Source: an uncultured virus (IMG/VR IMGVR_UViG_3300021085_000013) (taxonomy: Duplodnaviria > Heunggongvirae > Uroviricota > Caudoviricetes). From it: a stretch of 64,000 bases of DNA. Below are positions 6,213 through 55,014 of the stretch, piece after piece. Numbering within the stretch: position 1 is the stretch's first letter; every line of letters starts with the position of its first letter. The stretch covers positions 1 through 64,000 of IMG/VR virus record IMGVR_UViG_3300021085_000013; one strand, 5' to 3'. The position numbers and the translations under genes are program-made. The notes below the pieces were generated by a model, which searched no databases, was not told where the DNA came from, and saw only the letters and a list, made by a program, of their open reading frames with translations.

Positions 6213-7640
6213 TTAAAGAGCTAATTTAGATACATTGTATGTAACATATTGAGTTTCTGGGTGGAAACCTGCTTCAACTAATGCGAATCTAGATTTAACA
6301 GCAACTTTAGGAGCCATAGTTCCTTCAGCGATTGTTTGTACTGATTCAGCCATTAAGTAAGGCATGAATACTAATCCAGGACCGTTACCATCACCTTTTC
6401 TACCAACTACTACTTCATAAGTATTGTCAGCAGCACCTTCCCATGCTTGTCTTGGGTCAGTGTATACATTTACACCAGCTACAGAACCTACTGGGTAGAT
6501 TGCACCTGCTGCTTGTGATAATGTGTTAGCCATTGGGTTAGCAACGAAACCAGCAACTGATTGTAAAGCTGTAGCCACTTTAGGACCTACAACACAGAAG
6601 TTACCTGCACCTCTTCTACCTCTGTTTGCGATAAAGTTCGCAGCAGCAAGGATTGAAGTTAAGATTCTTCTATGGTTAGAAGCGATAGTCTCACCACCTA
6701 ATGTATCTTCAGATAAGTCTAAGTCTAAGTTAGCACCTGAAGCTGTAACGTTAGCTTTACCTAAAGAATTAAGTTTAGCTAAGATTAAGTTGTTGATTGA
6801 CTGAGTTAATTCGTTAGTTAATACTGACTCAACTTGAGCAACAGCATCTACACCGAATTGTTTAAGATCTTGTACTTGTTCTCTAGTAACTGCAGCAGCA
6901 ACTTGGAAAGTTTCAGCAGCAACACTTTTTGAGAATAAAGAAAGACCCATAACTTTGTCAGGAGTTTGTTCACCAACACCTCTTGAGAATGCATTACCAT
7001 CCTTGTCAGCAGCAGCGAATCCTTTAATATGATCTTCTAAAGCTTTCACTAATTCGATCTTTAAAGTAGAAATACCATCAGCGTCGTCAGCTGAGAAACA
7101 ATCTGCAACTGCACCAGCATCAGCTTTCGCTTCACCAGCTACAGTGATTTTGTAAATTTCCATACCGTCTAATCTAGAAGCACCTTGAGCAATTGCAAAA
7201 GTATCTCCTTCAGCAGTAGCACCAACAACTACGTTAGTACCTGATACTTTTACATAAGTTGGAGCAGTTGATCCGATTAATTTACCACCTTCGTAAACGA
7301 AGTCTAAGTAAGATAAAAGACCCATTGGTCCAGCCATTGGTACAACTGGTACTAAGTCTAAACCGATAGTTTGTGCAGCAACTTGCATTGCTAATGGTAA
7401 TAATGTAGGAGCTTTATCACCTGAACCGTCTGCAGTTGCAGAAGGTAAAGATACATCACCCATACCGTAGATGTTACCAGCAGTCCCTAAAGACATGATG
7501 TGTGCATCTTCGTAAAGTTTGTGGTTATGACAGTATTCTGACATCCACGCTAGTTTTTCTGCTTCGTTGATACCTGTAGCTGATTCGATGATCGGAGCCC
7601 AAGTTTCTCTAACTTCTGCAGAGTTAATTAAATTTGCCAT
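6213..7640 (-). CDS. gp23: Major capsid protein (T4 gp23 family)
   Basis: W-PI-E N-terminus, VVPMAGPMG-L-YL, LTNELTQSIN, IANRGRRGAGNF, GLVFMPY, PKVAVKSRFAL. Confidence 0.95.
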   Translation of the reverse strand: MANLINSAEVRETWAPIIESATGINEAEKLAWMSEYCHNHKLYEDAHIMSLGTAGNIYGMGDVSLPSATADGSGDKAPTLLPLAMQVAAQTIGLDLVPVVPMAGPMGLLSYLDFVYEGGKLIGSTAPTYVKVSGTNVVVGATAEGDTFAIAQGASRLDGMEIYKITVAGEAKADAGAVADCFSADDADGISTLKIELVKALEDHIKGFAAADKDGNAFSRGVGEQTPDKVMGLSLFSKSVAAETFQVAAAVTREQVQDLKQFGVDAVAQVESVLTNELTQSINNLILAKLNSLGKANVTASGANLDLDLSEDTLGGETIASNHRRILTSILAAANFIANRGRRGAGNFCVVGPKVATALQSVAGFVANPMANTLSQAAGAIYPVGSVAGVNVYTDPRQAWEGAADNTYEVVVGRKGDGNGPGLVFMPYLMAESVQTIAEGTMAPKVAVKSRFALVEAGFHPETQYVTYNVSKLAL

Positions 7641-7795: not shown

Positions 7796-9844
7796 CTACT
7801 TGTTAAATCTCTTGTTAATAGACTTCTTAACATCAGTTAAATCGTATAAAGGTTTCTTATCTTCAATAACAGGAGCAGCTTCATTTACTGTCTCTACTTT
7901 TTCCATAACTACAGCAACATCTCTAAGATCTCTAGTTTGCCAGAAGTTTCTTACTTGGTAAGCAGTTTCTAGTTTATGGTATTTAGATTGAGCTAAAAGA
8001 GCTGTTTTCTTGTTATCTGATAATTTAGACCATGTTTCTTTATATTCTTCTGGCATCATTTCAATAACATTAGGTTCGTTAGTTTTAACGCTATTTAATA
8101 ATGAAGAGTTCCATAATGTAAGAATTTGTCCTTCAGTTAAGAATCCTTTTCCTTCGATTGATTTTAATACTTTAGATTGATCTTCAGTATTTAATTCGTT
8201 GTATTCTGCTTTCTTAGCTTCAGAAATAAATCTAAAGAAATGAGGGTTAGTATTTTCTTTAACGGTTGCTTTTTCGATTAAAGCAGATAATTTAGAACTA
8301 ATTTCAGATTTGTAAGCATCTAGTGAATCTACTGCTTCTTCAACTTCTTCAGTTTCTTCAACTTCTTCAGTTTCTTCAACTTCTTCAGTAGCTTCAATTT
8401 CTTCTTCTACGAATTCTTCTGCATTTTCTTTATCTTCGGCATCAACGTCTTTAACTTTGAAAGTTTCACCGTCTACTGTAAATTCTGTTTCTCCGTCTGC
8501 GATTGCTTTAGCTCTTGCAGCACCGAATGCATTTCCTTCTTCAACTTCTTCAGTTTCTTCAACTTCTTCAGTTTCTTCAACTTCTTCAGCAGCCTCTTCT
8601 TCAGAAATTTCTTCGTCACCGGCATCGTCAACTGTATCTTCTAACTCGTCTTCTAACTCGTCAGATTTGTCTTCAACTTCTGCACCGTGATCTAATTCAT
8701 TATCTTCAGCATCAACAGTAGGTTCAGTAACATCTGTAGAATCGTCTTCATCTTCAATTTCTTCAACTTCTTTACCAGCTTCATCTTCTAGTAATAAGTT
8801 AGAATTAACTGTTTCTGCAACGTATTCTGCATATTCAGTAACTTTTTCTAAATTTTCTTTTAAGTATTCAATATACTTTAATAAGCCTTCATGGGTTGTT
8901 GCACCTTCATTATAAGATTCTGCTAAGTAATTAGTATAGTCTTTAATTGATTCAACACCTTCAGCAACATGCTCAGTATATGCAACGCTATTATCTAATT
9001 TCTCAGATATTTCGTTATTTGTAGTTATTGTATTATCTAAGTTTTCAGCAAGGTATGCAGAATACTCGATAGTCTTTTCTAATTTCTCAGCAAGATAGTT
9101 TGAATATTCTTTAACGCTTTCAACTTCAGACTTTACAGATTCATCACTATTTAAAGATTCCATTCCCTCTTTAATAGTTTTTATTTCGCTTGATAAATAC
9201 TGTGAATATTTATTAAAATCATCAGTACTTACGAATTTTGATTCAGCCATTTTGTTTTCAGTTTTATTTTCGGTTGTTAAAAGTTCTTTTGTATTTCCAA
9301 TTTCATAAATTTGAATGCTAGAATCGTTATCAAATCCGAAAGATTCGTTAACTCTTTTTAATTCAGCATTTTCAAAACCAGGATCTGCAACTAAATCATA
9401 AGTGAATAATTGCTTAATTTTAACAGTCCCGTTAGATTCAACTGTACCAGCTGCTCTAGATGAAATTTGTAAAGGAACACCAGCATCAACCAAAGCTTTA
9501 GCCTGACGACCAGCTTCAGTATCAAGTAATCTGATTTTACCTTTTACTTGTTTTGTTTCGCTATCATAGGATAATTCTTCAATAACGTGAGATACGTTTT
9601 TTAAAGATACATCAAATGTTTGTGGGTGATCTAATTCTCCTAAAAGTTTAGAAGAACCTATTTTAGATTGAAGAGCTTCAATTTGTGGAACATATTCTGA
9701 CTCAGTATAGATTCTATTATTTCTATTCTTTTTGTCAATTTCTCCAAATATACCTTCAAGGACATAAGCCCCATCACCATCTTGTTTGAATTCTAATTCA
9801 CTAGAAGATCTTTCTAGGATTAATAGATTGTTTTTTGTATTCAT
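7796..9844 (-). CDS. gp21: Prohead protease (gp21-like) fused to scaffold/core domain (gp22-like)
   Basis: N-terminal ~170 aa with NRNNRIY, GELDHP, ISSRAAG, TYDLVADPGF; then helical YxxYLAE repeats and acidic region. Confidence 0.9.
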   Translation of the reverse strand: MNTKNNLLILERSSSELEFKQDGDGAYVLEGIFGEIDKKNRNNRIYTESEYVPQIEALQSKIGSSKLLGELDHPQTFDVSLKNVSHVIEELSYDSETKQVKGKIRLLDTEAGRQAKALVDAGVPLQISSRAAGTVESNGTVKIKQLFTYDLVADPGFENAELKRVNESFGFDNDSSIQIYEIGNTKELLTTENKTENKMAESKFVSTDDFNKYSQYLSSEIKTIKEGMESLNSDESVKSEVESVKEYSNYLAEKLEKTIEYSAYLAENLDNTITTNNEISEKLDNSVAYTEHVAEGVESIKDYTNYLAESYNEGATTHEGLLKYIEYLKENLEKVTEYAEYVAETVNSNLLLEDEAGKEVEEIEDEDDSTDVTEPTVDAEDNELDHGAEVEDKSDELEDELEDTVDDAGDEEISEEEAAEEVEETEEVEETEEVEEGNAFGAARAKAIADGETEFTVDGETFKVKDVDAEDKENAEEFVEEEIEATEEVEETEEVEETEEVEEAVDSLDAYKSEISSKLSALIEKATVKENTNPHFFRFISEAKKAEYNELNTEDQSKVLKSIEGKGFLTEGQILTLWNSSLLNSVKTNEPNVIEMMPEEYKETWSKLSDNKKTALLAQSKYHKLETAYQVRNFWQTRDLRDVAVVMEKVETVNEAAPVIEDKKPLYDLTDVKKSINKRFNK
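8339..8590 (-). repeat. Two short tandem arrays of an 18-bp unit encoding EEVEET
   Basis: cttcaacttcttcagttt repeated at ~8339-8390 and ~8539-8590 within the scaffold region. Confidence 0.8.
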
Positions 9845-10298: not shown

Positions 10299-11888
10299 TT
10301 ACATTGCCATAGGATCAACGTCCGGTTCTTCTGCGTCAATATTAGCTTGTCTTTGTTTATATGCTAAATTAGCTGCTTTATCGTCCGGTGATAATTTTAA
10401 ATATCTGTCTACTAAGAATTCCATATCAAAGTAAGGCATTTCTTCCATGGTAACTGGATCTGTTTTCATTAGAGAATCTTGCATTGTAGATATAAAGTCT
10501 AATCGTTTCTCCATGATTTCCATTTGTTTTAATTCAGCAAACATATTCTCTTCATTAAATTGAATAGCTATTTGAGTTCTGAAACCTGCATCATCTTTGA
10601 ATTCAGGAAATTTAAGACACATCTGTAGCCATAGTGGTTTTACTAAAATTTCTTGGAAAGAAGAACGTAATCTTTTAATAAATTTAGAAAACTTAATTTC
10701 ATCTCTAATCATACCATCAGCTGCAAGGTTAAAGTCACCACCACCGTCTTCATACATAAATCTATTGAATGGTATTTTAGAAACCATTTTTAATTTATCA
10801 TTAAAATATTTAAGTGCTTCTGTATCTGATAATTCGGGACCGTCTCCTCCTAAAGTTTCAATCTCTGGAGATTCTCCTTCTTTGGATGGTAACCAATATT
10901 CTTTGTTAAATTGGAGCATTGGTTTTCCATTAGTTGCCAATGTAGCTGAATCCCAATCAAAATCTACAACTTCTTTATAATTACCCATTAATTGAGCAAG
11001 AGATTGCTTAGCTCTTGTTTTAGATTTACCACCAACTGGAATAATAAACTTCATTCTATATGATGAGTTTGTAACCGCCCAGATAACTCTAGTATGTTCC
11101 ATTATTCTCATCAGGTTAAATGATCTTATAAGTCTTTCTAAGTAACTTACTCTCGAGGCAGTGGTTATTGAAGAATAAGAAAGATAGATAATCTGTGAAT
11201 CATACAGGACTCTCTCCTTAACAGGATCGTCCTTAAATTGAACCCATACTTTTTTACCATCATCTTTATTATAACCTGGCATTAGTGTAATAGGATCTAT
11301 TTCCTTAAATCCTATAATCTGATCTTGATCTGGGCTGTAAATAATTTCAAAAGAAAGATATCCGTCAATTAAGAATTTTCTAAAGAAGTACCATGCCGAT
11401 TGATCTGAATTAAATCCAAAATATTGATATAAATCTCTGTATGATTTATTTAAGTACTTTGTAACTTCTTCTGAAACATCCATTCCTATAAGTTCTGGAT
11501 TTCCAATAAAGTTCTTATTGTCATATACTATAGATTCGTCACATAGAATATCTAATATATCTTCTATTTCATCATGTGTGGAAAATCTTCTTAATTCGTC
11601 TCTTTTACCTTCATAGCCTTGGTCAAAGAAAGGAATATTTTTTCTCATGTTGGTATCTGCCATCGATAATGCGGCAAATGCTCCATACATGTTATCGTCG
11701 TCTAGTCCCATTTGATTCATTTGGCCGTAACCAAATTCATCTTCTACAGGACCTATTGCCTGAGATTGTCTTAAGACTAAATCATCATAATACATTCCGA
11801 AAGACGAGAGTCTTTTTAATGTATCACTTAAAGTGAATGATCTTTTACCAGTACTTAATGGTCCGTTTCTTTCTATAAATCCTGCCAT
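10299..11888 (-). CDS. gp20: Portal vertex protein (T4 gp20 family)
   Basis: SYLERLIRSFNLMRIME, EYWLPSKEGE-PEIETL-G, IRDEIKFSKFIKRLR motifs. Confidence 0.93.
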   Translation of the reverse strand: MAGFIERNGPLSTGKRSFTLSDTLKRLSSFGMYYDDLVLRQSQAIGPVEDEFGYGQMNQMGLDDDNMYGAFAALSMADTNMRKNIPFFDQGYEGKRDELRRFSTHDEIEDILDILCDESIVYDNKNFIGNPELIGMDVSEEVTKYLNKSYRDLYQYFGFNSDQSAWYFFRKFLIDGYLSFEIIYSPDQDQIIGFKEIDPITLMPGYNKDDGKKVWVQFKDDPVKERVLYDSQIIYLSYSSITTASRVSYLERLIRSFNLMRIMEHTRVIWAVTNSSYRMKFIIPVGGKSKTRAKQSLAQLMGNYKEVVDFDWDSATLATNGKPMLQFNKEYWLPSKEGESPEIETLGGDGPELSDTEALKYFNDKLKMVSKIPFNRFMYEDGGGDFNLAADGMIRDEIKFSKFIKRLRSSFQEILVKPLWLQMCLKFPEFKDDAGFRTQIAIQFNEENMFAELKQMEIMEKRLDFISTMQDSLMKTDPVTMEEMPYFDMEFLVDRYLKLSPDDKAANLAYKQRQANIDAEEPDVDPMAM

Positions 11889-37887: not shown

Positions 37888-38205
37888 TTAATATTCAAAT
37901 GGTGGAGTTCCATAATCACCTTGTTCGATGCCATACCATACTCCTGATACTTGTAAATACCACCATCCATATTTAGTGTCGTCTACTACTTTAAATTTCT
38001 TAGGTAATTTAACAGATTTTTTTGGAGCTCTAGCAATATACTTTAAAACTGGAACACCATCATCCCATGTTTTTTTAGTAGATCTTGCTTGAACTGATTG
38101 TCCATCTGAAAACGCATCAAATGCTTTTGCATCTTCTATTTCATCTGCTAATAAATCGATAGCTGATTCATTAATGTATTGTTCAAATAATTTTACTTTT
38201 TTCAT
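37888..38205 (-). CDS. Putative internal head protein
   Basis: N-terminus MKKVKLFEQYINES. Confidence 0.65.
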   Translation of the reverse strand: MKKVKLFEQYINESAIDLLADEIEDAKAFDAFSDGQSVQARSTKKTWDDGVPVLKYIARAPKKSVKLPKKFKVVDDTKYGWWYLQVSGVWYGIEQGDYGTPPFEY

Positions 38206-38206
38206 T

Positions 38207-39541: not shown

Positions 39542-39575
39542 TTTATATTGTTTTGTTTATAATAGTATATATCTT

Positions 39576-42500
39576 TTAATGTAAGGAATCATGTGCTAAT
39601 TCATTAGCTAAGTCTGGATTATCATCTGTGAAATCTGATAATTCTTCGTCAGTCATTTCTTTTCCATTAGAATATTCACCATAACTAAAGAATGCATCTG
39701 TGAAATCTGGATAATCTTTCATATCAACATCTTCCATTTCTAATGAACTAATATCTACTTTCTTTCCTTTAAATTTAATATAATTAGCTTCGTTAATAAA
39801 AGATTCTAATGTTAAACTAACAACTGGTTTAATTCCAGTTAATATTCTTTTTCCAAATTTAGAAAGACCAATTCCATTTTCACTTACTGTAAAGTATTTA
39901 GAATTTCTTCTCATCCATCTTTTATTATCGATTGATTTTTCTTTTAGAATATTATTGAATTCTTCTTCTGTTAATACACCATCCGCTAATGCCTCGATCA
40001 TTGCGTTTCTGACTTTAGCAGTTCTACCTGAAGTTTGTGCAGGATGATTATCGGTATATCTTCTTTTTATTTGAATTTTAGATTCTCTAAGACCCGGTTT
40101 CATTACGTTTAATTCCCACCACTGTTCTAATTGGTGATAAATATTTGCACCCATGTTTGAAATCATGAAGTCAATTACATCATCATAATTGTCTTTTTCA
40201 TCTTGATAAAAACCAGGAGTATCGATATATTCTTTACCCATTATCTTTCTAACTGCTCTTTCTGGCATAGCATCGATTTCTTTTAAAAATTCTTCGAAAT
40301 CTTCATCGTTTTTAAAACCCTTAGCTTCAATAACCATTGATTCCATTAGGCCAATAGCAATCTCTCCAACTTCTCTATCGCCGCCGTCAACATATCTTTT
40401 GTTAAGTATTGCAAATTTAAAACCATCTGCTTTTATCGTATACATTGGCATCATACTATCACTATAGTCGTATTTGTATTTACCTGCTTTTAATTCTTTA
40501 CCGATTGCAAAGAAATCTTTAGCTTTACCTACTAAATCTGCAAGATTATCTAAGTGGTCACCAGCGTCGTCCTTTTCATTAACTAATGATTCATAAACTC
40601 CTTTTTCAATGTTCTTGATTAAGAGTTTAGCACCCTTCTTGTCAAGTTCATTTTGAATAAAGTCCATCATTTCGTTGGGATCTTCAGCATCTATACCAAA
40701 TTCAGATGCTAAGTTTTGATATGCATCAAATTCCATATTAGAAATAGTGTCTTCTAAGTCTGCATACACATCTTCATTAACTGCTGATTCTACCATTACT
40801 AGCCCTATATCCTTATATGCTATTTCATGCTCTCCACCGTCTTGATCTAGTGCAAATACTGATTTATCATGCCACATTGCAGCATTGTCATCGTTATTAG
40901 AATCAGGATTATAAATGATATATTCTTTTCCGTTTCCGGTTTGAATCATTGCATCATCTGCATCTCCTAATTTTTTTAATAATGACTTTTTAGTATACCT
41001 TTCTTCAACAGCTTCACCTGACGTATATTCAAAATCATTATATAGTGCCTTTAACCATTCTAAAAACTCTGGAGTTTTCTTCATTACTTTCTTATGTCCG
41101 TATTCTTTAAAGAATTCTTTCTGAAAAGTATCAAATGATTTGTGATTACCTATCATTTGGTGAATGTCAGACATAACACCCTCACTGATAACTAATTTTA
41201 CATCTTTGTTTTTACCAGCTACTGCATCATCTAGTTCATTTGTAAGAGCTTTCTTTTTTGCTGTTAAATCTATTAGCTGCTGTCTAGTTGCTGCTTTCTC
41301 ATCACTTCCATCTTCCGCAGCGATGTATATCTTTACAATATCTTTCATCTTATTAACTGTTTCTCCAAATTCCTTTGAAATCTTGTTAATAGATCTAGCT
41401 TCTAATATATTAGATTCTTCAATGTATTCTCCTAATTCAGGATCGTCCCATCCATTAGGATCGGCTAATACCGATTGTAAATCTTCTCTTGAACCTGTCA
41501 TTTCAACTTCTGGCCAATTGCCACCAGGGCCGTTCATTGTTAAAACTTTCATTTTAACATTATATTTCTTTAAAAGCTTTTTGAGTGTTTTTGATTTAGG
41601 ATCTATTGCATCCATTACTACAGTAGCTTCATTTAAATTTTCGTCTAGCTTATCAAAGAATCCACCATGTTCACTTTGTAAATCTTCACCATACTTGTCG
41701 TCCCATATTTTAGCTAATTCATCTTTAGTAATTTTACCTTTATATTTTCCCATGATTTCAACATAGACACTACCATATTCATATTCAAAATCTTCACCAT
41801 AAGAAAAATCCCATGCCTTTTCAACATCTTTAATTGTAAGCTTTTTGGCTTCAGTAACCTTTGATTCATACCATCCGTTTTCGTAATCGTCATCATCTTC
41901 ATAATCATCATACTCAGGTTCTTGATACCATGATTGATTTGGATCAGATTCTGCTTCTTCAGTAAAGTCATGTCTTTTCCAATTAAATCTTGGATCTTCA
42001 ACTAATGCAGGGAATAATGTCTTTTTCTTTTTATCTTTGGTCTTTATTTTACCGAATGCTAAATCAATACCAAGTTGTCTTAATTCTTTAAATGAACCTT
42101 TCATTGTTTTAACATCTTCTTCAGTATATCCATTCATTGTAGCAACAAGATCATAATAATCCATTCCACCAAATTCACCATATCCTTCATAATCCTTTTC
42201 CGTCCACTTGTTACCCATATTATCATACATAAATACTGTAATCATGTTCTGTCTTTCAGAACCTATTTGTGTGTTTGTATCGGATGTAAGCCATGAAAAT
42301 TGACCTTCAACTATCATCTGTTCATGTAACAATTGAGCACCAGTCGTTACAATGTTTAAATAGCTTTCAGGAATTCCATTTACAAAGTTATGTAATTCTG
42401 GTTCGAAATCTGGCATACCACATGCATATCTTGGATATGTTGCTCCTTCTGTATTTACAAGAATACTCATTCCATAATACTCTCCAAGCTCACCTGATTC

Positions 42501-42794
42501 AGTGTTACAATATAATACAAATACCTGTGGCACTTGAACTTTAAAGTTAGATTGTAATGGATATTCGTTATGACATCCTAATTCTTTAGTAGTGTATACG
42601 TCTAAGGAATGTAATTCTTTATCATATTTAGTTAATTCTCTATATGGAATAGAAGCTCTTTGGTTAAATAGATCTCCCCAATAAGAAGGCTTTCTCAAGG
42701 AATATTTCCCAGAAACCTTTTTGTATACTTTATATAAATCAACGTTTTCGTTCATTGAATTTACAAAGCTTTCGAATGTTTTTTTAGTGCTCAT
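39576..42794 (-). CDS. Putative capsid-packaged polyprotein (1072 aa, about 10 small modules)
   Basis: N-terminus KKTFESFVNSMNE; repeated linkers ESKVTEA, ENLNEA, ESNILEA, ESAVNED, ESLVNEK, ESMVIEA, ESFINEA. Confidence 0.7.
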   Translation of the reverse strand: MSTKKTFESFVNSMNENVDLYKVYKKVSGKYSLRKPSYWGDLFNQRASIPYRELTKYDKELHSLDVYTTKELGCHNEYPLQSNFKVQVPQVFVLYCNTESGELGEYYGMSILVNTEGATYPRYACGMPDFEPELHNFVNGIPESYLNIVTTGAQLLHEQMIVEGQFSWLTSDTNTQIGSERQNMITVFMYDNMGNKWTEKDYEGYGEFGGMDYYDLVATMNGYTEEDVKTMKGSFKELRQLGIDLAFGKIKTKDKKKKTLFPALVEDPRFNWKRHDFTEEAESDPNQSWYQEPEYDDYEDDDDYENGWYESKVTEAKKLTIKDVEKAWDFSYGEDFEYEYGSVYVEIMGKYKGKITKDELAKIWDDKYGEDLQSEHGGFFDKLDENLNEATVVMDAIDPKSKTLKKLLKKYNVKMKVLTMNGPGGNWPEVEMTGSREDLQSVLADPNGWDDPELGEYIEESNILEARSINKISKEFGETVNKMKDIVKIYIAAEDGSDEKAATRQQLIDLTAKKKALTNELDDAVAGKNKDVKLVISEGVMSDIHQMIGNHKSFDTFQKEFFKEYGHKKVMKKTPEFLEWLKALYNDFEYTSGEAVEERYTKKSLLKKLGDADDAMIQTGNGKEYIIYNPDSNNDDNAAMWHDKSVFALDQDGGEHEIAYKDIGLVMVESAVNEDVYADLEDTISNMEFDAYQNLASEFGIDAEDPNEMMDFIQNELDKKGAKLLIKNIEKGVYESLVNEKDDAGDHLDNLADLVGKAKDFFAIGKELKAGKYKYDYSDSMMPMYTIKADGFKFAILNKRYVDGGDREVGEIAIGLMESMVIEAKGFKNDEDFEEFLKEIDAMPERAVRKIMGKEYIDTPGFYQDEKDNYDDVIDFMISNMGANIYHQLEQWWELNVMKPGLRESKIQIKRRYTDNHPAQTSGRTAKVRNAMIEALADGVLTEEEFNNILKEKSIDNKRWMRRNSKYFTVSENGIGLSKFGKRILTGIKPVVSLTLESFINEANYIKFKGKKVDISSLEMEDVDMKDYPDFTDAFFSYGEYSNGKEMTDEELSDFTDDNPDLANELAHDSLH

Positions 42795-42814
42795 TTTTAT
42801 TTGTATTTGTTTAT

Positions 42815-43894
42815 TTAAACTCGGTTAGGCTTTATTTTATATTTAAATTTACCTTGTGTAATAGAATATATTTGTAATTTGCTAGTTTTTCCAGGTAATT
42901 TCTTGTAATAGTGAAAAGCTACTATTTCATGATCTTTAGACTCTATAAAAAGGAATGGAGTAGGTATATCTCCTACTGCTGAAATTACATCGTCTTGTAT
43001 TTCAGTAAATGTTCTAACGGAAGGCTCAGTCTCTATTATACTTTTAATTTTTTCTGCAGTTTTAGAGTCACTTAGCTTTCCTAATTCTACGTCATTAAAT
43101 TTAATTACTAATGCGCCGTTATCTTTATCTCCAGGACCTATTTTAAAATCTCTTTCACTAGAAGAAAGGGCCTGAATATCTGTCTTAGTTAAATTTTGAA
43201 TATGCTTAAATCTTTTTCCACCTACAGTTCCCCATTCATTTATCCAACCTCCACCGGCAGCCATATCTTTACCATCTCCGTCCGGGTTGATTTCTTCAAT
43301 ATTATATTTTACTGCGTCATATAATGCCGTTAACTTCGGTACATAAGTACTATTAATTCCCTGGTGTTTTGCACCTGTTCTCCAATTTTGTAACATGCCC
43401 TTTGACATTTGAGCTTCTTTTAACTCACATTTACCAAGGGGTGGTTTAATTGGTGACCACCTTTCATTATATAATTCTAAGTCAGTATCGGCCGCACCTC
43501 CACCTATTTTTATATTTTCTACAATATACGCTAGCATTATTTCTCCAGCACCAATTCCATTATCGTCTCTTCCAATATTAAACAATTCGTTTGCTTCGCT
43601 TTTATTTAACATTAAATATTGAAAAACTACTCCGAATGTATCGTCATCCATTTTAGAAAGCCATAACCTACCATCAGGTTGTTGTTTAACATCCTGTGTT
43701 GAAGTAAACTTAACACCTTGCCATGGACACTTATTCTTTTTAAATGTTCTATTAATTGAATTAAATAAATTCTGTTGGGCAGCCTTACTGCCGGTTGATG
43801 CAACTCCAATATAGGATTCTATAATTAATGCTTCATTTTCAGCATTGGTTTTTGCAGCACTATGTAGTGCTCTTTCAAAATCGTACCTATCCAT
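42815..43894 (-). CDS. Hypothetical protein, possible PD-(D/E)XK nuclease fold
   Basis: GAGEIMLAY...DTDL...CELK arrangement. Confidence 0.45.
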   Translation of the reverse strand: MDRYDFERALHSAAKTNAENEALIIESYIGVASTGSKAAQQNLFNSINRTFKKNKCPWQGVKFTSTQDVKQQPDGRLWLSKMDDDTFGVVFQYLMLNKSEANELFNIGRDDNGIGAGEIMLAYIVENIKIGGGAADTDLELYNERWSPIKPPLGKCELKEAQMSKGMLQNWRTGAKHQGINSTYVPKLTALYDAVKYNIEEINPDGDGKDMAAGGGWINEWGTVGGKRFKHIQNLTKTDIQALSSSERDFKIGPGDKDNGALVIKFNDVELGKLSDSKTAEKIKSIIETEPSVRTFTEIQDDVISAVGDIPTPFLFIESKDHEIVAFHYYKKLPGKTSKLQIYSITQGKFKYKIKPNRV

Positions 43895-45758
43895 TGTTTT
43901 CTAAAAATTGTTTAAATGTTAATAATGATTCAGTGACTTCATTTGATTCTGAAGCACCTACTGAATCTTCTAATTTTTTCTTAAGTTCACCATACATTTT
44001 ATGTAAGGCCTTTGGTGTTGTAGACTTAAATAGTTTTTCATCTCCGTCTAACATTGCATTTCTAACCTGAGTCGCTGAAATATTATTGTCTGTTCTTGGA
44101 ATTTCAAATAATCCAAAATCACTCCTAACTCCAAGATCTTCTCTATAAGAATCTTTATTTACTTGGAATCCGTAAGTTTTCATTCTATCGCTTCCTGTTC
44201 CCCATAATACGGGTTCATAAGTTGGTCTCATTGCATTGAACATTGTATCAATACCTCCGGTTGGAATTACAAAGATTTCTTTTAAGAATGGATATTGTTT
44301 TTGAACCGCCTTAAACATATCTAATTGTGTCTTCTCATCATAAGGTCTTTTAAATGCATCTTCCTTTTTCTTATTCTTTGCTTTTACTAATAAAACAACC
44401 ACAGGATATCCATTTTCTTTGTGTATAGTTTCTAATACTTTAGCATGTCCAAGTGTAAATGGTTGGAATCTACCAACAAACATATTTACTAATTCTCCTC
44501 CTTGTTCAGGATGATCTACTTTAAGTGCTTCATTTAAATTAACACTTGTCTTTACTTTATTATGTAATATGAAATTATTAAAGTCGTATATGGAATTTTC
44601 ATCGGTATTCTCTACAAATACTTTCTTATCTATAGTTTCTACTATTTGATTTAAATGCTCTAACATTTCTGCATTTATGATATCGCTTTCCTTGCTTCTC
44701 TTTTTTCTAAAAGAACCTAAAGTTATTTTAAATAATTCTGCAAGTATTTCGTTTTCAACATAAGAAAGAGTGGTCTCGTTCTTAATGTATTTAGTATTTA
44801 GTTTAAAGGAATCTGAATCTGCAAAATCAGCTGATTCAAAGTTAACACCAATAAACTTAGCAGAGTGTTCTTTAACATACGTATTAAACATCACTGACAT
44901 TAATTCAATATATCTCCAGTCTGCTGTTTCTTCATTTAGTTGAATGTCTTTCATTTCAAATGTAGAAATAAATTCAATAAGACCAGCAATAGTAATTTGA
45001 TACATGTGGCTTGATCTCTTATTTTCACTAACAGTTCTTGTAAAATCTTCTAATTTAAAAGATCTAGATTTTTTCTCATCAATAAAAGAAACTATTAATC
45101 CGTCAATTTCTACTTCAAAGTCTTCATTTAACGTAGGAGAAATTGCATTTGGATTAAATGTCTTAATCATCTTTTGGGTAAAAGGTAATCTTGCATCTGT
45201 ATTTGGATCATAATCAAATGCTTCAGAAAACTCCTTATCTGACATAGATAGAACAGTTATTAATTCTTCTTTTTGCATTTGAGATAACATACCATCAAAT
45301 ACAATGCTAGGTCCTTGAACCTCTAATATCTTTGACCATTTATTTAATATAACTGGATCGCTAATTGTTTTTTTAATCTTACCTGATTCATTCATAGTTT
45401 GAATGTGAGTAAGTATTAAATTGTTTTTAGGCAGTTTAGTATATTTATATTCTGACACGTTTAATTCAGGTAAATATTCAAAACCAAATTTCCAATCATG
45501 TGGCATTTGTTCCTTTATACTAGGATCTAGACTTTGGATGTGCTTGACACCTGTTTCATATAAACCTACTATTGTTCTGTCTATCATGTTCATTCTAGAA
45601 TCTCCAGATTTGTAATATTCAAATTTAGTCTGGTTTCTTCTAACGTGAAATGAAGCTCCTTGTATTTTTTCAGTTACTAGAACCCTGCTATTCAACATAT
45701 CTTGAAATGCATTGATATTAGTTTCCTGAAATACTTGTCTTAGTTTTTTAAGTGCCAT
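43887..45758 (-). CDS. RNA-ligase-like nucleotidyltransferase fused to HUP-family (NadM/cytidyltransferase-like) domain
   Basis: Motif I TEKIQG, FEY, DGLIV...K; C-terminal domain GRFQPFTLGH, GSDR, ISATQVR. Confidence 0.75.
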   Translation of the reverse strand: MALKKLRQVFQETNINAFQDMLNSRVLVTEKIQGASFHVRRNQTKFEYYKSGDSRMNMIDRTIVGLYETGVKHIQSLDPSIKEQMPHDWKFGFEYLPELNVSEYKYTKLPKNNLILTHIQTMNESGKIKKTISDPVILNKWSKILEVQGPSIVFDGMLSQMQKEELITVLSMSDKEFSEAFDYDPNTDARLPFTQKMIKTFNPNAISPTLNEDFEVEIDGLIVSFIDEKKSRSFKLEDFTRTVSENKRSSHMYQITIAGLIEFISTFEMKDIQLNEETADWRYIELMSVMFNTYVKEHSAKFIGVNFESADFADSDSFKLNTKYIKNETTLSYVENEILAELFKITLGSFRKKRSKESDIINAEMLEHLNQIVETIDKKVFVENTDENSIYDFNNFILHNKVKTSVNLNEALKVDHPEQGGELVNMFVGRFQPFTLGHAKVLETIHKENGYPVVVLLVKAKNKKKEDAFKRPYDEKTQLDMFKAVQKQYPFLKEIFVIPTGGIDTMFNAMRPTYEPVLWGTGSDRMKTYGFQVNKDSYREDLGVRSDFGLFEIPRTDNNISATQVRNAMLDGDEKLFKSTTPKALHKMYGELKKKLEDSVGASESNEVTESLLTFKQFLENNG

Positions 45759-45768
45759 ATTATATTAT

Positions 45769-47139
45769 TTATCTTCCGTACTTTATGATTCCCATCAGCT
45801 GATTGATAGCAGCAAAAGTACCTGTTAGTTTCATAGTCTTTCCTTTATATACAAAAACTATTCCTTCAGTTGGTATGATAGATTCTACTCCTCCAATTCT
45901 ATCTAATCTCTCTAGTTCTTTCATTACCTTTTCGATCTGAGTAACGCTTCCATCTTTTTTGATCTTTTCAGATTCTGATCTAATTTGATTATGTAGTCTT
46001 TGCATCTCTTTGTCTGGATTTGCAGCTACAAAATTAGAAGCATTCATAAGAATTATAGACCCTAGTTCTAAAAATAAATCTTCAAACGGTCTAATGTTTT
46101 CTTTATATTTCTTTTTAACATCTTCTTTGTCAAATTTCTTAACAGAAGCAGCTTCATCTTTTCCTATCTCCTTTGCAAGTGATCTCATATTTAAAGACTT
46201 TTTATCTCCATAAGCCCATCTTAATAATAAACCTTCCTTATAGTCTTGTTGTAAATCGGGGAAATTTGCATCTATTGTTTCTCTCCACCACATTTCATGA
46301 TATCTAGAAACTTCGTCACCGTCTGTTAAGTTATAACGATCTCTTAATTTTTCAATCTGCTTTATAAATTTAGCTTGATTTTTATCAAAATTAATATCTT
46401 TACCTAGTTTTAAAATCTGAGGAGGAATTATTGTAAATGTCTTTTGAACATCGGCATCTACTTCCTTTAAAGCTTTGACTAATTCTCCTGCTATTTTTCT
46501 AGATCCTGTAATATTACCATTCCCATCAGTTTCTTGAATATCGTGAAATTGAAGAACATCTCTTTCGTAATAGATTACATTTGGGTTTTTAGAATAGATT
46601 AATTCTATATTTATAAAATCTTTACCGTCATTAAATATGGACTGATCTTTAATTTTTGGAAGAGCTTCATTTAGATCTTTAGCTGCAAACACGTATGTTT
46701 CTCGCACTAAAGGTACCTCATGCTTTTCAAACATTTCTATAATACCGTCTAAATCAACGGGACTAATTAATTGACCTTTATTTCTAGAAAACATCGTAAC
46801 TCCGTTTTTTACGGTTGCTAATAGATTTTGACCGTCTGTTTTTTCAGTGGCTACCTCTTCAAAGTTTAATTCTCCTTGAAGACCAGACGTTACGATCTTT
46901 TTAAAATCTGCGAATGTTAAATCTTTTTCATCGAAAGGATGAGACATGTGACCAGCTGCACCGCCTTCTAAGATTAATTCTTCTTTAAGTGTATTGTATT
47001 TTTCAACGATATATTCATCAAATGATAAAACTTTACTCTTATTTTCACTCATATAATGTGCAACATATTCCTCTCTGGTCATGCCATGTGCATCTGCGTG
47101 ATGTTGAATAAAATCTACGAAGTTGTTATTTAGTTCCAT
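45769..47139 (-). CDS. Ligase-superfamily (KxDG) nucleotidyltransferase-like protein
   Basis: EGGAAGHMSHPFD, TEKTDG, NIE, EGIVF, KLTG-FA. Confidence 0.7.
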   Translation of the reverse strand: MELNNNFVDFIQHHADAHGMTREEYVAHYMSENKSKVLSFDEYIVEKYNTLKEELILEGGAAGHMSHPFDEKDLTFADFKKIVTSGLQGELNFEEVATEKTDGQNLLATVKNGVTMFSRNKGQLISPVDLDGIIEMFEKHEVPLVRETYVFAAKDLNEALPKIKDQSIFNDGKDFINIELIYSKNPNVIYYERDVLQFHDIQETDGNGNITGSRKIAGELVKALKEVDADVQKTFTIIPPQILKLGKDINFDKNQAKFIKQIEKLRDRYNLTDGDEVSRYHEMWWRETIDANFPDLQQDYKEGLLLRWAYGDKKSLNMRSLAKEIGKDEAASVKKFDKEDVKKKYKENIRPFEDLFLELGSIILMNASNFVAANPDKEMQRLHNQIRSESEKIKKDGSVTQIEKVMKELERLDRIGGVESIIPTEGIVFVYKGKTMKLTGTFAAINQLMGIIKYGR

Positions 47140-47158
47140 GTATATAGCTAATATAATT

Positions 47159-47188
47159 AAAAAACTTGACCCGGAAAAATCCAGGTCA
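47159..47188 (-). terminator. Probable terminator overlapping a class-3 promoter
   Basis: UGACCUGGA/UCCGGGUCA stem (one G-U) followed by AGUUUUUU on minus strand. Confidence 0.6.
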
Positions 47189-47206
47189 GTTTATTTTTAT
47201 TTTTTA

Positions 47207-49333
47207 TTATAAATATCTATCGATAAATTCTTCTTTGCTACCAACAAATGATCTAGTCTTTGGGCCAAAAAGAACAATTTCAGCACCTTCTGATTTAAGC
47301 CAATCTGCGACTTTTTGAGCTTTTTTCTTATCAGCTGATAACCATACTGTGTCAAATTCAGAACCGTGAGACCTTTGCATTACAATACCTCCTTTTTCAT
47401 TTGTAAATTTAAACTTATCTCCAAGAGCAACACTTACTTTAATATTTTTATCAAAATTCTTTTTATGATTCTTAAAAGAATATGCTAAAGCACCTGAGTA
47501 ACTTTTAGTGTCAGTTGTAAATTCATCTAAAGATGTAGTAGTACCTTCATAAATATTTGATTCAAATGCTGGAACTAATCCAGTTTCTCCGTAGATATCT
47601 GCCATCATCCATTTTTTAGAACCTTCATCCCATAAATAAACGAATTCTGCACCACCTTCGTAATTTGCATCTTTAATATATTTGTTAATATTCTTAACAT
47701 TACCTTTCATCAGATTAACATCTCCGCCATAGAAATTAATTTTCTTAACGTCTTTATCTAAACCTGAATTATCTCCATTTTTAAGAACAAAATCTACATT
47801 TTTACCACTTTTAAAGGTTGATTTAATAATAGGCAACATGTTTTCAGGATATGAATCATAGTGAGTATATACTGAAGTAATATTTCCTTTCTTGTCTATT
47901 TTACCAAATTGACCTCTAGTTCCTTCATTAATTACATAATTGATTACTTCGTTAAATTTAGATTCTTTTAAAGAAATTTCTTCTTCAGTTAATTGAAACT
48001 TAACTGATTCTTCTACTGCGTTAAATCCTGCTAATAATTTTTCAGCAAGTTTAGATTCACCAATAGATTCTAAATATAGAGCAGTGCCTTCAGCAACTCC
48101 AATACCTGACCATCCGGCAGCATTTGAAATTCTAGAATAATACTCATCTAATATCTGTGATATTTTCTTTGCTCCTACTATAATAGCTTGTTTACCAAGA
48201 GTTAAAGGATTAACAGTAACACTTCCTAATCTTCCTTTGATAATTTTTTCAGTAGCTGTTCTTTCTCTATGGAAATTAGCATCAGTTAATGCTTCAGCAT
48301 AAATATATTTAATAGCTCCTAAGTGAGAAATTTTATCAGCTGTTAAGCTTCCTAGTTCTGCAAATATTTTATTGTATTGAGTTAATACTTTCTTTGCATC
48401 TCTTTTATATTTAATATCTAAGGCCTCATTCATTAATGATTCTCCTAATCCCCAGTAATTTGCGTAATCGTATTCAACTGGGAATATACCTAAATCACCT
48501 TCATCACCTTCTTCACTTTTAACAATTTTAGCAAGATAGTAATCTCCCTTTGCAGTATCTTCATATCCGTATGAATCTGCATCTGATCCCATTTCTTTTT
48601 TAAATTGTTTTGATATCTTTCTCCAATTATCGATAGCGATTATTTCAACTTCACTTCCAATTGAATTTTCAGTAGTATCTCCTACTTTAAATTTAGCTTT
48701 TTCAGTAACTAAAGATTCTGAAAATTCTTCAATATGTTCCATATCGATTTCATCTTCTCCCTTTAATTCTTTTTGTACTTCTTTAGACTTTACTAATTTT
48801 GAAAGATCTTTCATAGTGATTTCTCCATCAATGAAGTCAGCTAGTATATAGTATTGATTAGCAGAAAGTCCTTCACTGTCTCTAAAATCACCAATTTCTT
48901 CAATTGCTGCTTTAGTAACGGTCTTAGCTTCAGTAATCACTGATTCGCTTAATGAATTTCTTAGACCACAGTGTACGCATTCTACCGTTCCGTCCTTGTC
49001 AATTTGCTTATATAAATGTCCTTTTTTATTAGTACATTTTGGTTCGTCTGATTCAGTAACTTCTTCTGATGCAGTAACCTCTTCTACCTCTACTTCTATT
49101 TCAGCGATTTCTTCTTCTGAAACATCTCCAAATATTTTTGAGATAATTGATTCTTTCTGATCTTCTTCTAAACCTTCGAAAGAAGTTAATCCTAATTCAT
49201 CTAGAATAGCAGCTATTTTACCAACTGATTCTTGTCTTTTTAAATTGTTTTCTTCTCTAAGTTTACTAACAGATTCCTGTTTTCTAATCTCTGTAAACGA
49301 TTTAAATGAAGAAATTTTATTAACTTTTGCCAT
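47207..49333 (-). CDS. Putative capsid-packaged polyprotein (708 aa)
   Basis: N-terminus KISSFKSFTE; linkers ESVITEA, ESLVTEK, ESLMNEA, VINEG, ESNIYEG; late motif at 49367-49374. Confidence 0.7.
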   Translation of the reverse strand: MAKVNKISSFKSFTEIRKQESVSKLREENNLKRQESVGKIAAILDELGLTSFEGLEEDQKESIISKIFGDVSEEEIAEIEVEVEEVTASEEVTESDEPKCTNKKGHLYKQIDKDGTVECVHCGLRNSLSESVITEAKTVTKAAIEEIGDFRDSEGLSANQYYILADFIDGEITMKDLSKLVKSKEVQKELKGEDEIDMEHIEEFSESLVTEKAKFKVGDTTENSIGSEVEIIAIDNWRKISKQFKKEMGSDADSYGYEDTAKGDYYLAKIVKSEEGDEGDLGIFPVEYDYANYWGLGESLMNEALDIKYKRDAKKVLTQYNKIFAELGSLTADKISHLGAIKYIYAEALTDANFHRERTATEKIIKGRLGSVTVNPLTLGKQAIIVGAKKISQILDEYYSRISNAAGWSGIGVAEGTALYLESIGESKLAEKLLAGFNAVEESVKFQLTEEEISLKESKFNEVINYVINEGTRGQFGKIDKKGNITSVYTHYDSYPENMLPIIKSTFKSGKNVDFVLKNGDNSGLDKDVKKINFYGGDVNLMKGNVKNINKYIKDANYEGGAEFVYLWDEGSKKWMMADIYGETGLVPAFESNIYEGTTTSLDEFTTDTKSYSGALAYSFKNHKKNFDKNIKVSVALGDKFKFTNEKGGIVMQRSHGSEFDTVWLSADKKKAQKVADWLKSEGAEIVLFGPKTRSFVGSKEEFIDRYL

Positions 49334-49365: not shown

Positions 49366-50874
49366 CTATATATCTCCGTCAAATTTGACTTTCTTAATAC
49401 TATACTCAAATTTCTCTTGTTTATAAATTTTTTGTCTAGCTTTACTGTGTTTGTATAGGTAATTGTCCCATTCGTCGGTTCTAATGTCATCTACAAAATC
49501 GATAATTAATACAGCTTCTTTAGACTCATGCTGCCTTAGACCTCTACCAATTGACTGCCTGATGATCACCTCGGACTTAAATGACTCTGTAAAGAATATA
49601 TTGTGTATTTTCTTAATGGAAATTCCAGTAGAAAATGTACCATAACTAGCTACAATAACTACTTCATCTCCTGCTTCCATTTTCTTCTTATATTCTTCTC
49701 TAATATCTTTATCAGTTCCTCCATCTACATAAAAAACTCTTTTATCTGAGTTTTGGCGAAGTTGTTCGTATATTTTTTTACCATGTTCTATCCTATGAAA
49801 CAGAACCAGAGAGTTTCTAGGAACCTTGCCAACGACATTACATATAAAATTAAGTCTACCAAAAGAATTAATAATGTAATTTTGTTCTAGTTGAAAAACA
49901 TCCTTCCTATCATACTTATTAAATGCTAATTCTTCAAATGCCTTTTTGGCGGAATCAGGTGCGTAATTCATTTCAATTACCTTTACTTTACATTTAGCGA
50001 TGTGACCCTGGCTCTGTAAAAATGCAGCCTTAACTTCGCTAATTACAGGACCCGTTTGACTCATTAGTGTTAACTTGTCTAAAGATCCATCTTTGGGAAT
50101 TGTACCCGATAAACCATACTTATATTTTGCGTTAGTGCATTTTTGTAATATAGTCTTAATAGAATTAGATTTCGCCTTATGGGTTTCATCTACGATAACA
50201 GCGTCGAACTGTTGAAAGTATTCTTTGGGCTTTTTAACTAGGGATTGATATGTACCTATTACTACATTCCGGTCTGACTTTATTTTCTGACCAGCATATA
50301 TTTGTTGTATCTTTAGTTTTATTCTATTCTTATTATTGTATTCGTGGAAATCTTCATGAGCCTGTACAACTAAAGAAACATTAGGAACTATAAATAGTAT
50401 TTTCTCTGCTCTTTCTTTTTCTAACATATAAGCTACTGTTAAAAAGCTAATAAGTGTTTTTCCAGCAGACGTTGCTAATTCAGCTAAACATCTCCTAAAC
50501 TTTAGGATATTAAATGCAGTTTCTATTTGATAATCCCTTGGAACAAATTTGCTACCCTCAAAAAATTCTAAAGCCCATGCTTCAAATGATTCGGCTCCTA
50601 TGTTTCTATCAAATAGTCTTTGAATTCCATTAAGTTTAAGATCAAACTTATATTCCTTGCAAATAAGCATAACGTATCGCCAAAGACCAGCGGGAATCCA
50701 CTTATCGTCTTTGATATATGAAACATATCCGTCCCATATTCCTTTCTTGACTAAAGGATTAAATCTCCAACTATCAATTCTTTTAGTTAAAGATATTTTA
50801 ATCTGCTCTAGTTCAAGTTCCTCTGCTTCATCAATTCGTAAGAATTGATTATCATCCGTTAGAGTTAAAATCAA
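49366..50874 (-). CDS. uvsW: SF2 DNA helicase UvsW
   Basis: PRDYQ, ATSAGKT, GTYQSL, DETH, GLSGT, FSTGISI, QSIGRGLR. Confidence 0.92.
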   Translation of the reverse strand: MILTLTDDNQFLRIDEAEELELEQIKISLTKRIDSWRFNPLVKKGIWDGYVSYIKDDKWIPAGLWRYVMLICKEYKFDLKLNGIQRLFDRNIGAESFEAWALEFFEGSKFVPRDYQIETAFNILKFRRCLAELATSAGKTLISFLTVAYMLEKERAEKILFIVPNVSLVVQAHEDFHEYNNKNRIKLKIQQIYAGQKIKSDRNVVIGTYQSLVKKPKEYFQQFDAVIVDETHKAKSNSIKTILQKCTNAKYKYGLSGTIPKDGSLDKLTLMSQTGPVISEVKAAFLQSQGHIAKCKVKVIEMNYAPDSAKKAFEELAFNKYDRKDVFQLEQNYIINSFGRLNFICNVVGKVPRNSLVLFHRIEHGKKIYEQLRQNSDKRVFYVDGGTDKDIREEYKKKMEAGDEVVIVASYGTFSTGISIKKIHNIFFTESFKSEVIIRQSIGRGLRQHESKEAVLIIDFVDDIRTDEWDNYLYKHSKARQKIYKQEKFEYSIKKVKFDGDI

Positions 50875-53975: not shown

Positions 53976-54671
53976 CTATTCCTCAGTGGCCGACATCTTT
54001 GCTCTAACGAAGTGAGTTAAAAAGTAAGCGTCAACTAAATCGTCAAAGGGTTTTGGTATTTTTTTCGAAGGTCCAATTTCTTTCACACAAAAATCTAAAA
54101 GAGGATGTTCTGCTAAGACTTGATCTTCTAATACATTACCTAAAAAGGCATCCCATAATTGAGACTTATTCATGTTTCCTTTTCCAGCGTGTTTCTTAAT
54201 TGTAGTAGGAGCAATGGTTTGAATGTCTAGGATTTCAAGTTGACTTAGCATTCTTTCTTTAAGTATTGCAGCTCCTGCAGCCATATCTATAATATTATTA
54301 GTTCCCATTTTCGAACCGAAAGAAGTTCCTTCAAAAGAAATAATATATTGCTTCTTTGTTTTTGTAATATCCGTTATTAAATTAATAATGTCATCTGCTG
54401 TTTTAGCGTATCTCTTTATCTTTGCTAATTCAACGCTTGAATAATCTGCACCATGTTTTCCCCAGTCGGGTTGATTAATAAGAGTAACTCCCTTCAAATG
54501 AGATATGTCTTCTTGCCAAGCTCTTTCTTTCTTGGTTCCTTGGCCTTCTTTAATATAAGATATGAAATGATATTCGTTAGTTTCTTCTTGGTATATAAAA
54601 ATACCTGGAGAGTTTAATGAAAAGTCTACTGATACGTAATTCAAATTAGAATGATTTTCCGATAGCAGCAC
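53976..54671 (-). CDS. RuvC-like Holliday junction resolvase (start may be TTG at 54644)
   Basis: VDFSLNSPG, SFEG, APTTIKK-AGKGNMNK, DDLVDAY. Confidence 0.8.
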   Translation of the reverse strand: MLLSENHSNLNYVSVDFSLNSPGIFIYQEETNEYHFISYIKEGQGTKKERAWQEDISHLKGVTLINQPDWGKHGADYSSVELAKIKRYAKTADDIINLITDITKTKKQYIISFEGTSFGSKMGTNNIIDMAAGAAILKERMLSQLEILDIQTIAPTTIKKHAGKGNMNKSQLWDAFLGNVLEDQVLAEHPLLDFCVKEIGPSKKIPKPFDDLVDAYFLTHFVRAKMSATEE

Positions 54672-55014
54672 CTAATCCAGCGCCAACTAATCTTGAGGTT
54701 AATAAATCGTAAAAAATACCTTTTTGAATTCCTAAAACTTTAGCAACTGTTTTACCAATTGTTTTACCTAAAGCAAATCCTGTAAGGCCACCAAATATAG
54801 AACCTAAGAAACCTTCATTTGTTAATTCCTCATTAAATCTTTCAAAATCAAACGTTCCATCTTCATTTGCGTACTGTCTAGTAAATTCTTCTAATGCCGC
54901 ATCAACCTTTTGCTCTAATTCGTCAGTCCATTCTGACTGTAGAGATTCTTCTAATAGAGTAATTTCCTCTTTAGTTATATTCTCTTCGCTTAAGTATTCA
55001 AAAAATGTTTTCAT
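54646..55014 (-). CDS. Putative packaged membrane-active protein with glycine zipper
   Basis: MKTFFEYLSE; acidic N-half; LTNE then GFLGSIFGGLTGFALG...VGAGLGAAIG. Confidence 0.65.
   Translation of the reverse strand: MKTFFEYLSEENITKEEITLLEESLQSEWTDELEQKVDAALEEFTRQYANEDGTFDFERFNEELTNEGFLGSIFGGLTGFALGKTIGKTVAKVLGIQKGIFYDLLTSRLVGAGLGAAIGKSF

Follow-up and report, generated by a model that had tools for sequence, protein, structure and literature searches.

The window analysed here is a stretch of 64,000 nucleotides from an uncultured virus of the Caudoviricetes (a record of 116,899 bases, 42% complete according to CheckV, with 33% G+C and present in marine runs). It raises the question of why a domain that elsewhere forms a small gene of its own is enclosed here in a protein of 708 amino acids, directly behind a glutamate, and what it might do if it were released. 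Our reading, to which we give a probability of about 0.6, is that the protein is late head cargo cut after Glu470, that this cut would recreate the native N-terminus of the domain, and that the freed domain would be injected and act against host defence. The features discussed are collected in Table 1.

Table 1. Features of the window, all on the minus strand, with the basis of each assignment
Feature	Position in window	Strand	Basis or remark
T4-type major head protein	6213..7640	minus	phrog_138, E 1e-41
gp21-type head maturation protease, long Glu-site-rich C-terminal part	7796..9844	minus	phrog_207, E 2e-38
T4-type portal protein	10299..11888	minus	phrog_213, E 2e-67
Terminator-like hairpin after the ORF	47167..47188	minus	Weak: 1 found, 0.5 expected
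Modular polyprotein ORF, 708 aa (P0002)	47207..49333	minus	23 I/L/V-x-E sites
Last module, residues 597-708, begins G-T after I-Y-E	47210..47545	minus	Only near-identical relatives found
C-terminal joint A-F-E-S-N-I-Y-E: conserved PAFE domain end, then I-x-E site	47546..47569	minus	C-terminal contexts
phrog_1987-family domain, residues 471-596 of the polyprotein (P0001)	47546..47923	minus	Profile match, fold model
Conserved centre Y-T-H-Y-D-S-Y-P (domain Y19, H21, D23, Y25)	47846..47869	minus	Alignments
Predicted prohead-protease site I-N-E, residues 468-470	47924..47932	minus	Start register; T4 gp21 I/L-x-E rule (PMC12991175)
Glu-rich linker, residues 443-470, 21% Glu, no Asp	47924..48007	minus	Three I/L/V-x-E sites
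Module 4, residues 304-442, unknown function	48008..48424	minus	Before or after the phrog_1987 domain in relatives
Three small modules, residues 95-135 (Cys/His cluster), 136-211 and 212-303	48425..49051	minus	Bounded by Glu sites
Glu-rich leader, residues 1-94, 22% Glu, 7 sites	49052..49333	minus	F-x-x-F-x-E at residues 10-15
8-mer GATATATA, 41 nt before the polyprotein ATG	49367..49374	minus	Candidate late promoter

Read on the minus strand, the locus runs ...YVINE/GTRGQFGKIDKKGNITSVYTHYDSYPENM...GAEFVYLWD...W...AFESNIYE, as an earlier note made from the letters alone had described it, with the domain following Y-V-I-N-E directly. That note had located the module correctly but had given it as 47555..47940; the codon of G471 begins at 47923, and the true end, 47546, lies nine bases beyond the one given. 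Likewise, AFESNIYE does close the module, with the correction that a further module begins directly after IYE596. The domain matches phrog_1987 (E 5.5e-12, profile positions 2-118 of 128) and reaches 84 bits against a profile of the free-standing family, and all residues conserved in phrog_1987 and T4-GC 66 are present in it (T2, R3, Y19, H21, D23, Y25, G50, S53, Y65, Y96 and W105). The family motif Y-x-H-x-D-G-Y-P, given in that note, was borne out, with S replacing G24 in the window copy, and so was its mention of a widespread family with a fixed start, except that its M-(S/G)-T-R was too narrow a set; the start is M-[G/A/S]-T-R. phrog_1987 is annotated as of unknown function, and the domain and its relatives gave zero Pfam, NCBIfam and PADLOC matches at curated cut-offs, defence and anti-defence families included. 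Sequence searches of the PDB returned nothing real (armadillo-design matches without any stretch passing alone), and a sub-threshold match of P0162 to a helical Pfam domain (21.7 bits, cut-off 52.2) was regarded as chance. All 30 of the 30 feature matches in the ESM Atlas are unnamed. Separately, a Prok-E2_D cluster appeared there at 0.85 (15% of members), which we record as a lead only.

The arrangement is not an assembly artefact, since the domain is identical (100%) in 17 of the 80 IMG/VR loci retained and since one contig from each of two runs crosses the whole gene without gaps, with two substitutions in one (run X15, a possible source of the window DNA) and one in the other (run X9). Contigs from RNA runs cover the gene; these can show neither transcription nor its timing and were set aside as evidence for either.

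The strongest clue to the role of the preceding glutamate is the register in which relatives begin. The longer proteins of the family number 459 (246 representatives at 50% identity), and with the profile 5,220 clusters of 57-322 amino acids were found. Among the 131 representatives scored (of 150 listed, 246 in all), the residue before G/A/S-T-R is Glu in 95, the initiator Met in 36 and anything else in none, and 94 of the 95 Glu sites read I/L/V-x-E (P3: I 58, L 26, V 10, M 1). Of the 19 unscored representatives, nine start within the domain and four are long, repetitive and unrelated proteins; the other six are divergent members, all of which have Glu before G/S-T. In a further 107 profile hits, 95 matches follow an initiator Met and 8 follow Glu, and the four exceptions have, on inspection, Met or Val (possibly a GTG start) directly before the start; one of the 107 escaped the register pattern, yet begins M-G-S-R. 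At the DNA level, a start codon directly precedes the match in 155 of 159 loci, a set fetched by the free-standing pattern and hence biased to free-standing forms, and the other four are parser offsets that show M-S-T on inspection. Annotated phage genes begin at the match or one codon earlier (in KVP40.0229, the annotated start lies five codons upstream of an M-S-T-N start), and no free-standing member, in a set that spans many phyla as well as phages and plasmids, has a genuine N-terminal extension. Hence the earlier claim that a captured free-standing gene starts exactly at G471 is upheld, both by the phrog_1987 match from profile position 2 and by the starts of homologues. Internal translation initiation at this point was considered and ruled out, the preceding codon being GAA, which is not a start codon.

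Methionine aminopeptidase takes off the initiator Met before small residues such as G, A and S. The T4 protease gp21, in turn, is reported to cleave after Glu in I/L-x-E (PMC12991175). Under these two rules, a cut after Glu470 and removal of Met lead to the same N-terminus; that is, cleavage would free Gly471 as the counterpart of the first residue of the Met-processed free-standing relatives. The domain probably needs a free alpha-amine in this exact register, as suggested by the observation that exactly one residue always separates Glu from Thr in embedded copies, while the linkers upstream vary freely.

A different explanation takes the cutting and packaging for granted and denies that the free N-terminus is needed: the register would be a relic of one capture, in which a Glu-ended leader replaced the start codon, and would have been kept since the first strand begins at once. 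The history of the embedded forms gives this idea some substance. In a quick tree of 121 columns that also includes 90 free-standing cores, the 53 embedded ones group as a single clade (SH-aLRT 98), which makes them the shuffled descendants of one capture and not a series of independent trials, and four embedded copies that have lost His21 and/or Asp23 (P0219, P0257, P0227 and P0238) keep the Glu-then-G/S-T register nonetheless. Module 4 is instructive on both sides, in that its own register is fixed in 46 of 59 contexts, and the phrog_1987 register may accordingly reflect the mode of capture in part, while the remaining contexts (11 at +2, 1 at +3 and 1 without a site) include 12 of 59 in which it shifts. 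Neither the variable linkers with their single invariant residue between Glu and Thr nor the free-standing members without any genuine N-terminal extension are what a relic would predict, and we regard this explanation as unlikely, although not negligible.

The shuffling itself is evident from the architecture of the long proteins. A BLAST of the long relatives against the 708-residue protein gave matches in 204, and 141 of these 204 share the leader, whose F-x-x-F-x-E seems to resemble the T4 capsid-targeting sequence and which is also present in other ORFs of the genome. In these alignments, blocks start and stop near Glu joints and their order differs among relatives. The three small modules, which are without family match, move as blocks; P0111 has the phrog_1987 domain first, then module 4, then modules 1-3; P0021 and P0061 contain the domain twice; and P0005 and P0007 consist of the leader and the domain alone. 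The start of the embedded domain ranges from residue 7 to residue 498 of the host protein. Among 50,697 records, none is of a cultured phage that has an embedded copy.

Modelled alone, the domain reaches a pLDDT of 92 and a pTM of 0.88 (strands at 4-9, 14-20, 72-75, 94-99 and 104-109, and three helices in 126 amino acids), and a free-standing member reaches a pLDDT of 97, both models having 5-6 strands and 3-5 helices in 126-131 amino acids. The fold thus forms without the upstream sequence, on whose dispensability the earlier note had made its proposal depend. Foldseek against the PDB found no match at E <= 0.001 for either model, VIA-align found none at Z >= 5 among 48,161 chains (the highest Z scores being 4.3, with 79 aligned at rmsd 3.9, and 4.2, with 68 aligned at rmsd 3.8), and in a viral structure library the matches (5 at E <= 0.001) were all to uncharacterised proteins of phages. 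Weak matches to anticodon-binding and Brix-type domains were regarded as chance, and a homodimer predicted with zinc scored 0.05. In alignments built without selection by motif, T2, R3, G7, Y19, H21, D23, Y25, G50, S53, Y65, Y96 and W105 proved conserved, and position 93 is mostly Glu or Asp. A turn at residues 10-13 implies a hairpin, in a register derived from the secondary-structure string and not from coordinates, that sets residue 1 opposite D23 and R3 opposite H21. On this basis, we tentatively suggest that the amine, His21, Asp23 and probably Glu93 might come together in a single site, whose ligand would most likely be a metal or a phosphate-bearing molecule.

By analogy with T4 endonuclease V, for which an N-terminal amine acting as Schiff-base nucleophile is described (PMC5422863), or with Fpg, the alpha-amine could instead be the nucleophile itself, and the domain might then repair or unmark incoming DNA. 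Such chemistry would explain why the side chain at residue 1 is free to vary under a fixed register (G 39, A 7 and S 7 among 53 embedded cores, with Gly in the window copy; S 44, A 36 and G 7 among 87 free-standing ones), and Arg3 and a carboxylate would be close by. It sits less well with the plasmid relative YgcA, which has V2, S3 and H for D23 and hence is without Arg3; the invariant His21 and the Asp23-to-His swap, of a kind that appears typical of metal ligands, fit a metal site better, and we think a Schiff-base mechanism improbable.

Passage of the embedded copies through a prohead should deplete their internal protease sites. Cores were dereplicated at 70%, leaving 53 of 218 embedded and 87 of 129 free-standing. 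I/L/V-x-E occurs 0.14 times per 100 amino acids in the embedded cores vs. 2.17 times in the free-standing ones, that is, 16-fold more rarely, and at least one such site is present in 8 of 53 vs. 78 of 87 cores; these contrasts rest on one origin, as the embedded forms are a single clade, and P values overstate their independence. The tripeptide followed by G, A or S is found in 0 embedded vs. 21 free-standing cases, and the Glu content is 4.4% vs. 8.8%, whereas the control I/L/V-x-D is not depleted (2.28 vs. 1.56 per 100 amino acids). All 53 embedded cores are preceded by I, L or V at P3, against a background of 2.6% of positions, and this is the only result independent of the definition, since the embedded set was defined by Glu at -1. 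The window copy conforms, with no I/L/V-x-E in its core (residues 471-575) and three in the linker before it. A genome-wide bias is not the cause of the purge, given that the frequency is 1.88 per 100 amino acids in 21 hand-picked cytoplasmic ORFs of the genome and 1.86 in all 113 minus-strand ORFs.

The genome also has the machinery for such processing, with genes for a gp21-type protease, capsid and portal occurring together. The His, Ser and Asp motifs of the protease are present (residues 69-73, 128-133 and 150-155), as identified by motif shapes that we presume to be those of gp21-type enzymes. The capsid protein is nearest to those of uncultured huge phages (52%) and Lak phages (40%). 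The 8-mer GATATATA occurs 20 times on the minus (coding) strand and never on the plus strand, and 18 of the 20 copies precede an ORF by at most 120 nt; the ORFs include those of the protease, the polyprotein and others with F-x-x-F leaders. By this distribution, it is a candidate late promoter; a scan for sigma-70 promoters gave a chance-level result (16 vs. 14.4). It is quite likely, by inference from these elements, that the 708-residue protein would be made late, enter the prohead via its leader and be cut after Glu by the gp21-type protease. Both the limits of the domain and its lack of internal sites are consistent with this enzyme, which strengthens the case for polyprotein processing that the earlier note had made.

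The protein could alternatively stay uncut between modules, either to function as a single multidomain protein or to fill the scaffold and be degraded, with the Glu motifs reflecting acidic linkers. In T4, as described in PMC9958956, only N-terminal peptides are cut off the internal proteins, and gp22, gp67 and gp68 are degraded, which speaks for this idea. It nevertheless leaves unexplained why I/L/V-x-E is lost and I/L/V-x-D is not, why Glu replaces Met, and why the conserved centre is retained, and we consider it improbable. The preferred reading, with cuts at the joints, goes further than what is known of T4. The internal proteins IPI, IPII and IPIII and Alt are alike in the T4-type head, the gp21 protease, the N-terminal leader and the I/L-x-E cuts (predicted ones in the window chain), and the short relatives P0005 and P0007, as a leader plus one domain, match their plan; the T4 proteins differ in undergoing a single N-terminal trim, whereas the window chain has about six shuffled modules with internal joints and predicted processing. 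There is no sequence likeness between them (no Pfam match). The head-packaged ejection proteins of SPN3US and phiKZ, reported to carry long propeptides cut after Glu in A-x-E (PMC5694885, PMC10052503), differ in the P3 preference and in that a propeptide is removed, not several unrelated modules released. Polyvalent proteins, known from phages and from conjugative elements (Iyer et al. 2017), are described as strings of unrelated early-acting domains whose processing is tied to built-in metallopeptidases (PMC5512222); they have neighbours in common with the phrog_1987 family, e.g., ArdC-N, and no Pfam match ties the phrog_1987 domain to that set.

One further proposal of the earlier note was an N-terminal-nucleophile (Ntn) enzyme activated only by head maturation. 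Ntn hydrolases are four-layer alpha-beta-beta-alpha sandwiches, for which five predicted strands and three helices in 126 amino acids would seem too little. Whether Thr2 were freed by self-cleavage or residue 1 were the nucleophile, this reading, in spite of the strictly N-terminal start and the nearby, nearly invariant Thr2 that the domain shares with such enzymes, fails on residue 1, which is G, A or S throughout and G or A in 89 of 140 cores where Ser, Thr or Cys is needed, and on Val2 in YgcA, quite apart from the much smaller domain and confident models that match no solved fold, and we rate it as highly improbable. (Ntn hydrolases, DenV and Fpg are absent from the 50 matches listed for each VIA-align search, which does not imply their exclusion.) The other half of that proposal, namely that a putative activity is switched on solely by head maturation, is plausible.

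What the domain might do can be approached through its free-standing relatives. Members of this same family occur among the small hypothetical genes of cyanophages (T4-GC 66, including S-PM2p016 and PHM1_059) and also in KVP40 (KVP40.0229) and GAP32-type phages, for a total of 101 phage records; these are free-standing genes starting with Met, as opposed to the embedded window copy with its S at G24 and the halved Glu content of embedded cores. Neighbours among the 159 loci, identified from 32 of 60 listed neighbour clusters, include a VirB4-like ATPase (19), DUF3846 (12), a DNA methylase (8), an amidoligase (6) and ArdC-N (5); the commonest of them reaches 19 of 159 loci, none is general, and most of those that recur belong to particular clades. 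In the Streptococcus prophage YS387, a member is found outside the early genes, with terminase on one side and portal on the other.

The KVP40 protein matches 2,097 plasmid records, 1,902 of them conjugative. In both IncI1 records inspected, ygcA lies in the leading region directly after ardA, between psiA and nikA, and its product reaches 88 bits against the family profile in the same start register; its 'PndC' label in some records we take as an annotation slip, the gene lying after ardA and giving no profile match. The 499 nt before ygcA, an ssi-like sequence, share 90% identity with the stretch that precedes ssb. An IncI1 leading region is reported to contain three ssi-type single-strand promoters with up to ~500-fold induction after transfer, hp22, hp16 and ssb being listed among the genes behind such promoters (PMC12672017); going by position, our guess is that hp22 of pESBL is ygcA. 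In Enterococcus faecalis pTEF2, a member (66 bits, same register) lies near the relaxase, between PcfM and a PcfK/AcrIIA9-family gene, and by this position appears to be PcfL. These plasmid genes share the register of the embedded copies, and they would reach the cell as first-transferred DNA, not as capsid protein. Leading regions are described as enriched in anti-defence genes (PMC11541004). We found no function for ygcA or the pTEF2 gene in our literature search, nor any description of the family or of gp21-jointed polyproteins in the literature searched (mainly open-access papers, and the main text of PMC11541004).

Taken together, the IncI1 ygcA, the Enterococcus gene beside the AcrIIA9-family gene and the cyanophage T4-GC 66 genes point to action at DNA entry, probably against defence. 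T4 IPI offers a precedent for the capsid route, as it is reported to be injected and to block GmrSD (PMC9958956, PMC3012670). With slightly better than even odds, the freed domain would likewise enter the cell along with the phage DNA and immediately shield it from host defence, a job that also seems to be that of the plasmid relatives expressed from the leading region. A bolder version, which we put forward as doubtful, is that of an amine-dependent anti-defence enzyme of new fold, common to phages of many phyla and to the IncI1 and Enterococcus leading regions, which in the embedded clade would be a zymogen, silent in the polyprotein of the producing cell, activated by the protease and injected in a state to act ahead of any phage gene expression.

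On the evidence of the sequences, T4-type phages would apply capsid targeting not only to single proteins but also to polyproteins assembled from captured genes, in which the start Met is swapped for the Glu of the protease and cut sites within the domain are lost. This loss may be used as a test to predict head cargo in any T4-type phage genome. Further, a family that is uncharacterised, exceeds 5,000 sequence clusters and has no solved fold is hereby linked to two separate routes of acting at entry, capsid delivery and single-strand promoters on conjugative plasmids, and an anti-defence activity still to be discovered may well be sought in it.

The F-x-x-F leader that opens the 708-aa predicted polyprotein also opens several additional ORFs, both in the window and elsewhere in the full 116,899-base virus record (G000), and we regard these ORFs as candidates for further head cargo. 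One of them encodes a chain of 1072 aa that is rich in I/L/V-x-E, the predicted cut site of the gp21-type head protease. The protease itself has a C-terminal part of ~480 aa that is dense in the same motif and is probably a fused scaffold degraded by the same protease.

Features and loci discussed here (G000, full virus record)
Feature	Location	Strand	Detail
ORFs with F-x-x-F leader	window 37888-49333, 54646-55014; G000 95624-97064, 108222-109175
1072-aa chain with leader	window 39576-42794		25 I/L/V-x-E sites
Head protease	window 7796-9844		36 I/L/V-x-E sites across entire protein
Cytidylyltransferase-like domain behind N-terminal part	window 43887-45758		T-E-K-x-x-G in N-terminal part; domain Pfam E 8e-9
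Next gene	window 45769-47139		T-E-K-x-D-G
GATATATA	window 49367-49374; 19 further sites across G000	minus	20 copies on minus, 0 on plus
IncI1 plasmid family member	L248:4001-4435; L247:7001-7435
KVP40.0229	L246:2986-3375
Streptococcus prophage YS387 family gene	L082:4998-5342

Among embedded relatives of the phrog_1987-family domain (P0001), P0219, P0257, P0227 and P0238 have lost His21 and/or Asp23 and retain the cut-site register; these copies are possibly inactive or repurposed. Among the 30 plasmid matches listed, the IncI1 member is labeled hypothetical in most, ygcA in one and 'post-segregation killing protein PndC' in six; the PndC label looks wrong. For KVP40.0229, the annotation places the start five codons before the M-S-T at which the family begins. 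In Streptococcus prophage YS387, a RelE/ParE toxin-antitoxin pair precedes the family gene, which is located between terminase and portal. In the ESM Atlas, the closest named cluster to P0001 and P0361 scores 0.85 and carries Prok-E2_D on 15% of its members, which may reflect a fusion and serves as a lead only.

The T-E-K motifs of the two neighboring genes are reminiscent of ATP-dependent RNA ligase motifs. Finally, GATATATA is strictly strand-biased across G000 (20 minus vs. 0 on the other strand), and protease, structural and leader-bearing genes lie downstream of its copies; we propose it as a candidate late promoter for phages of this group.
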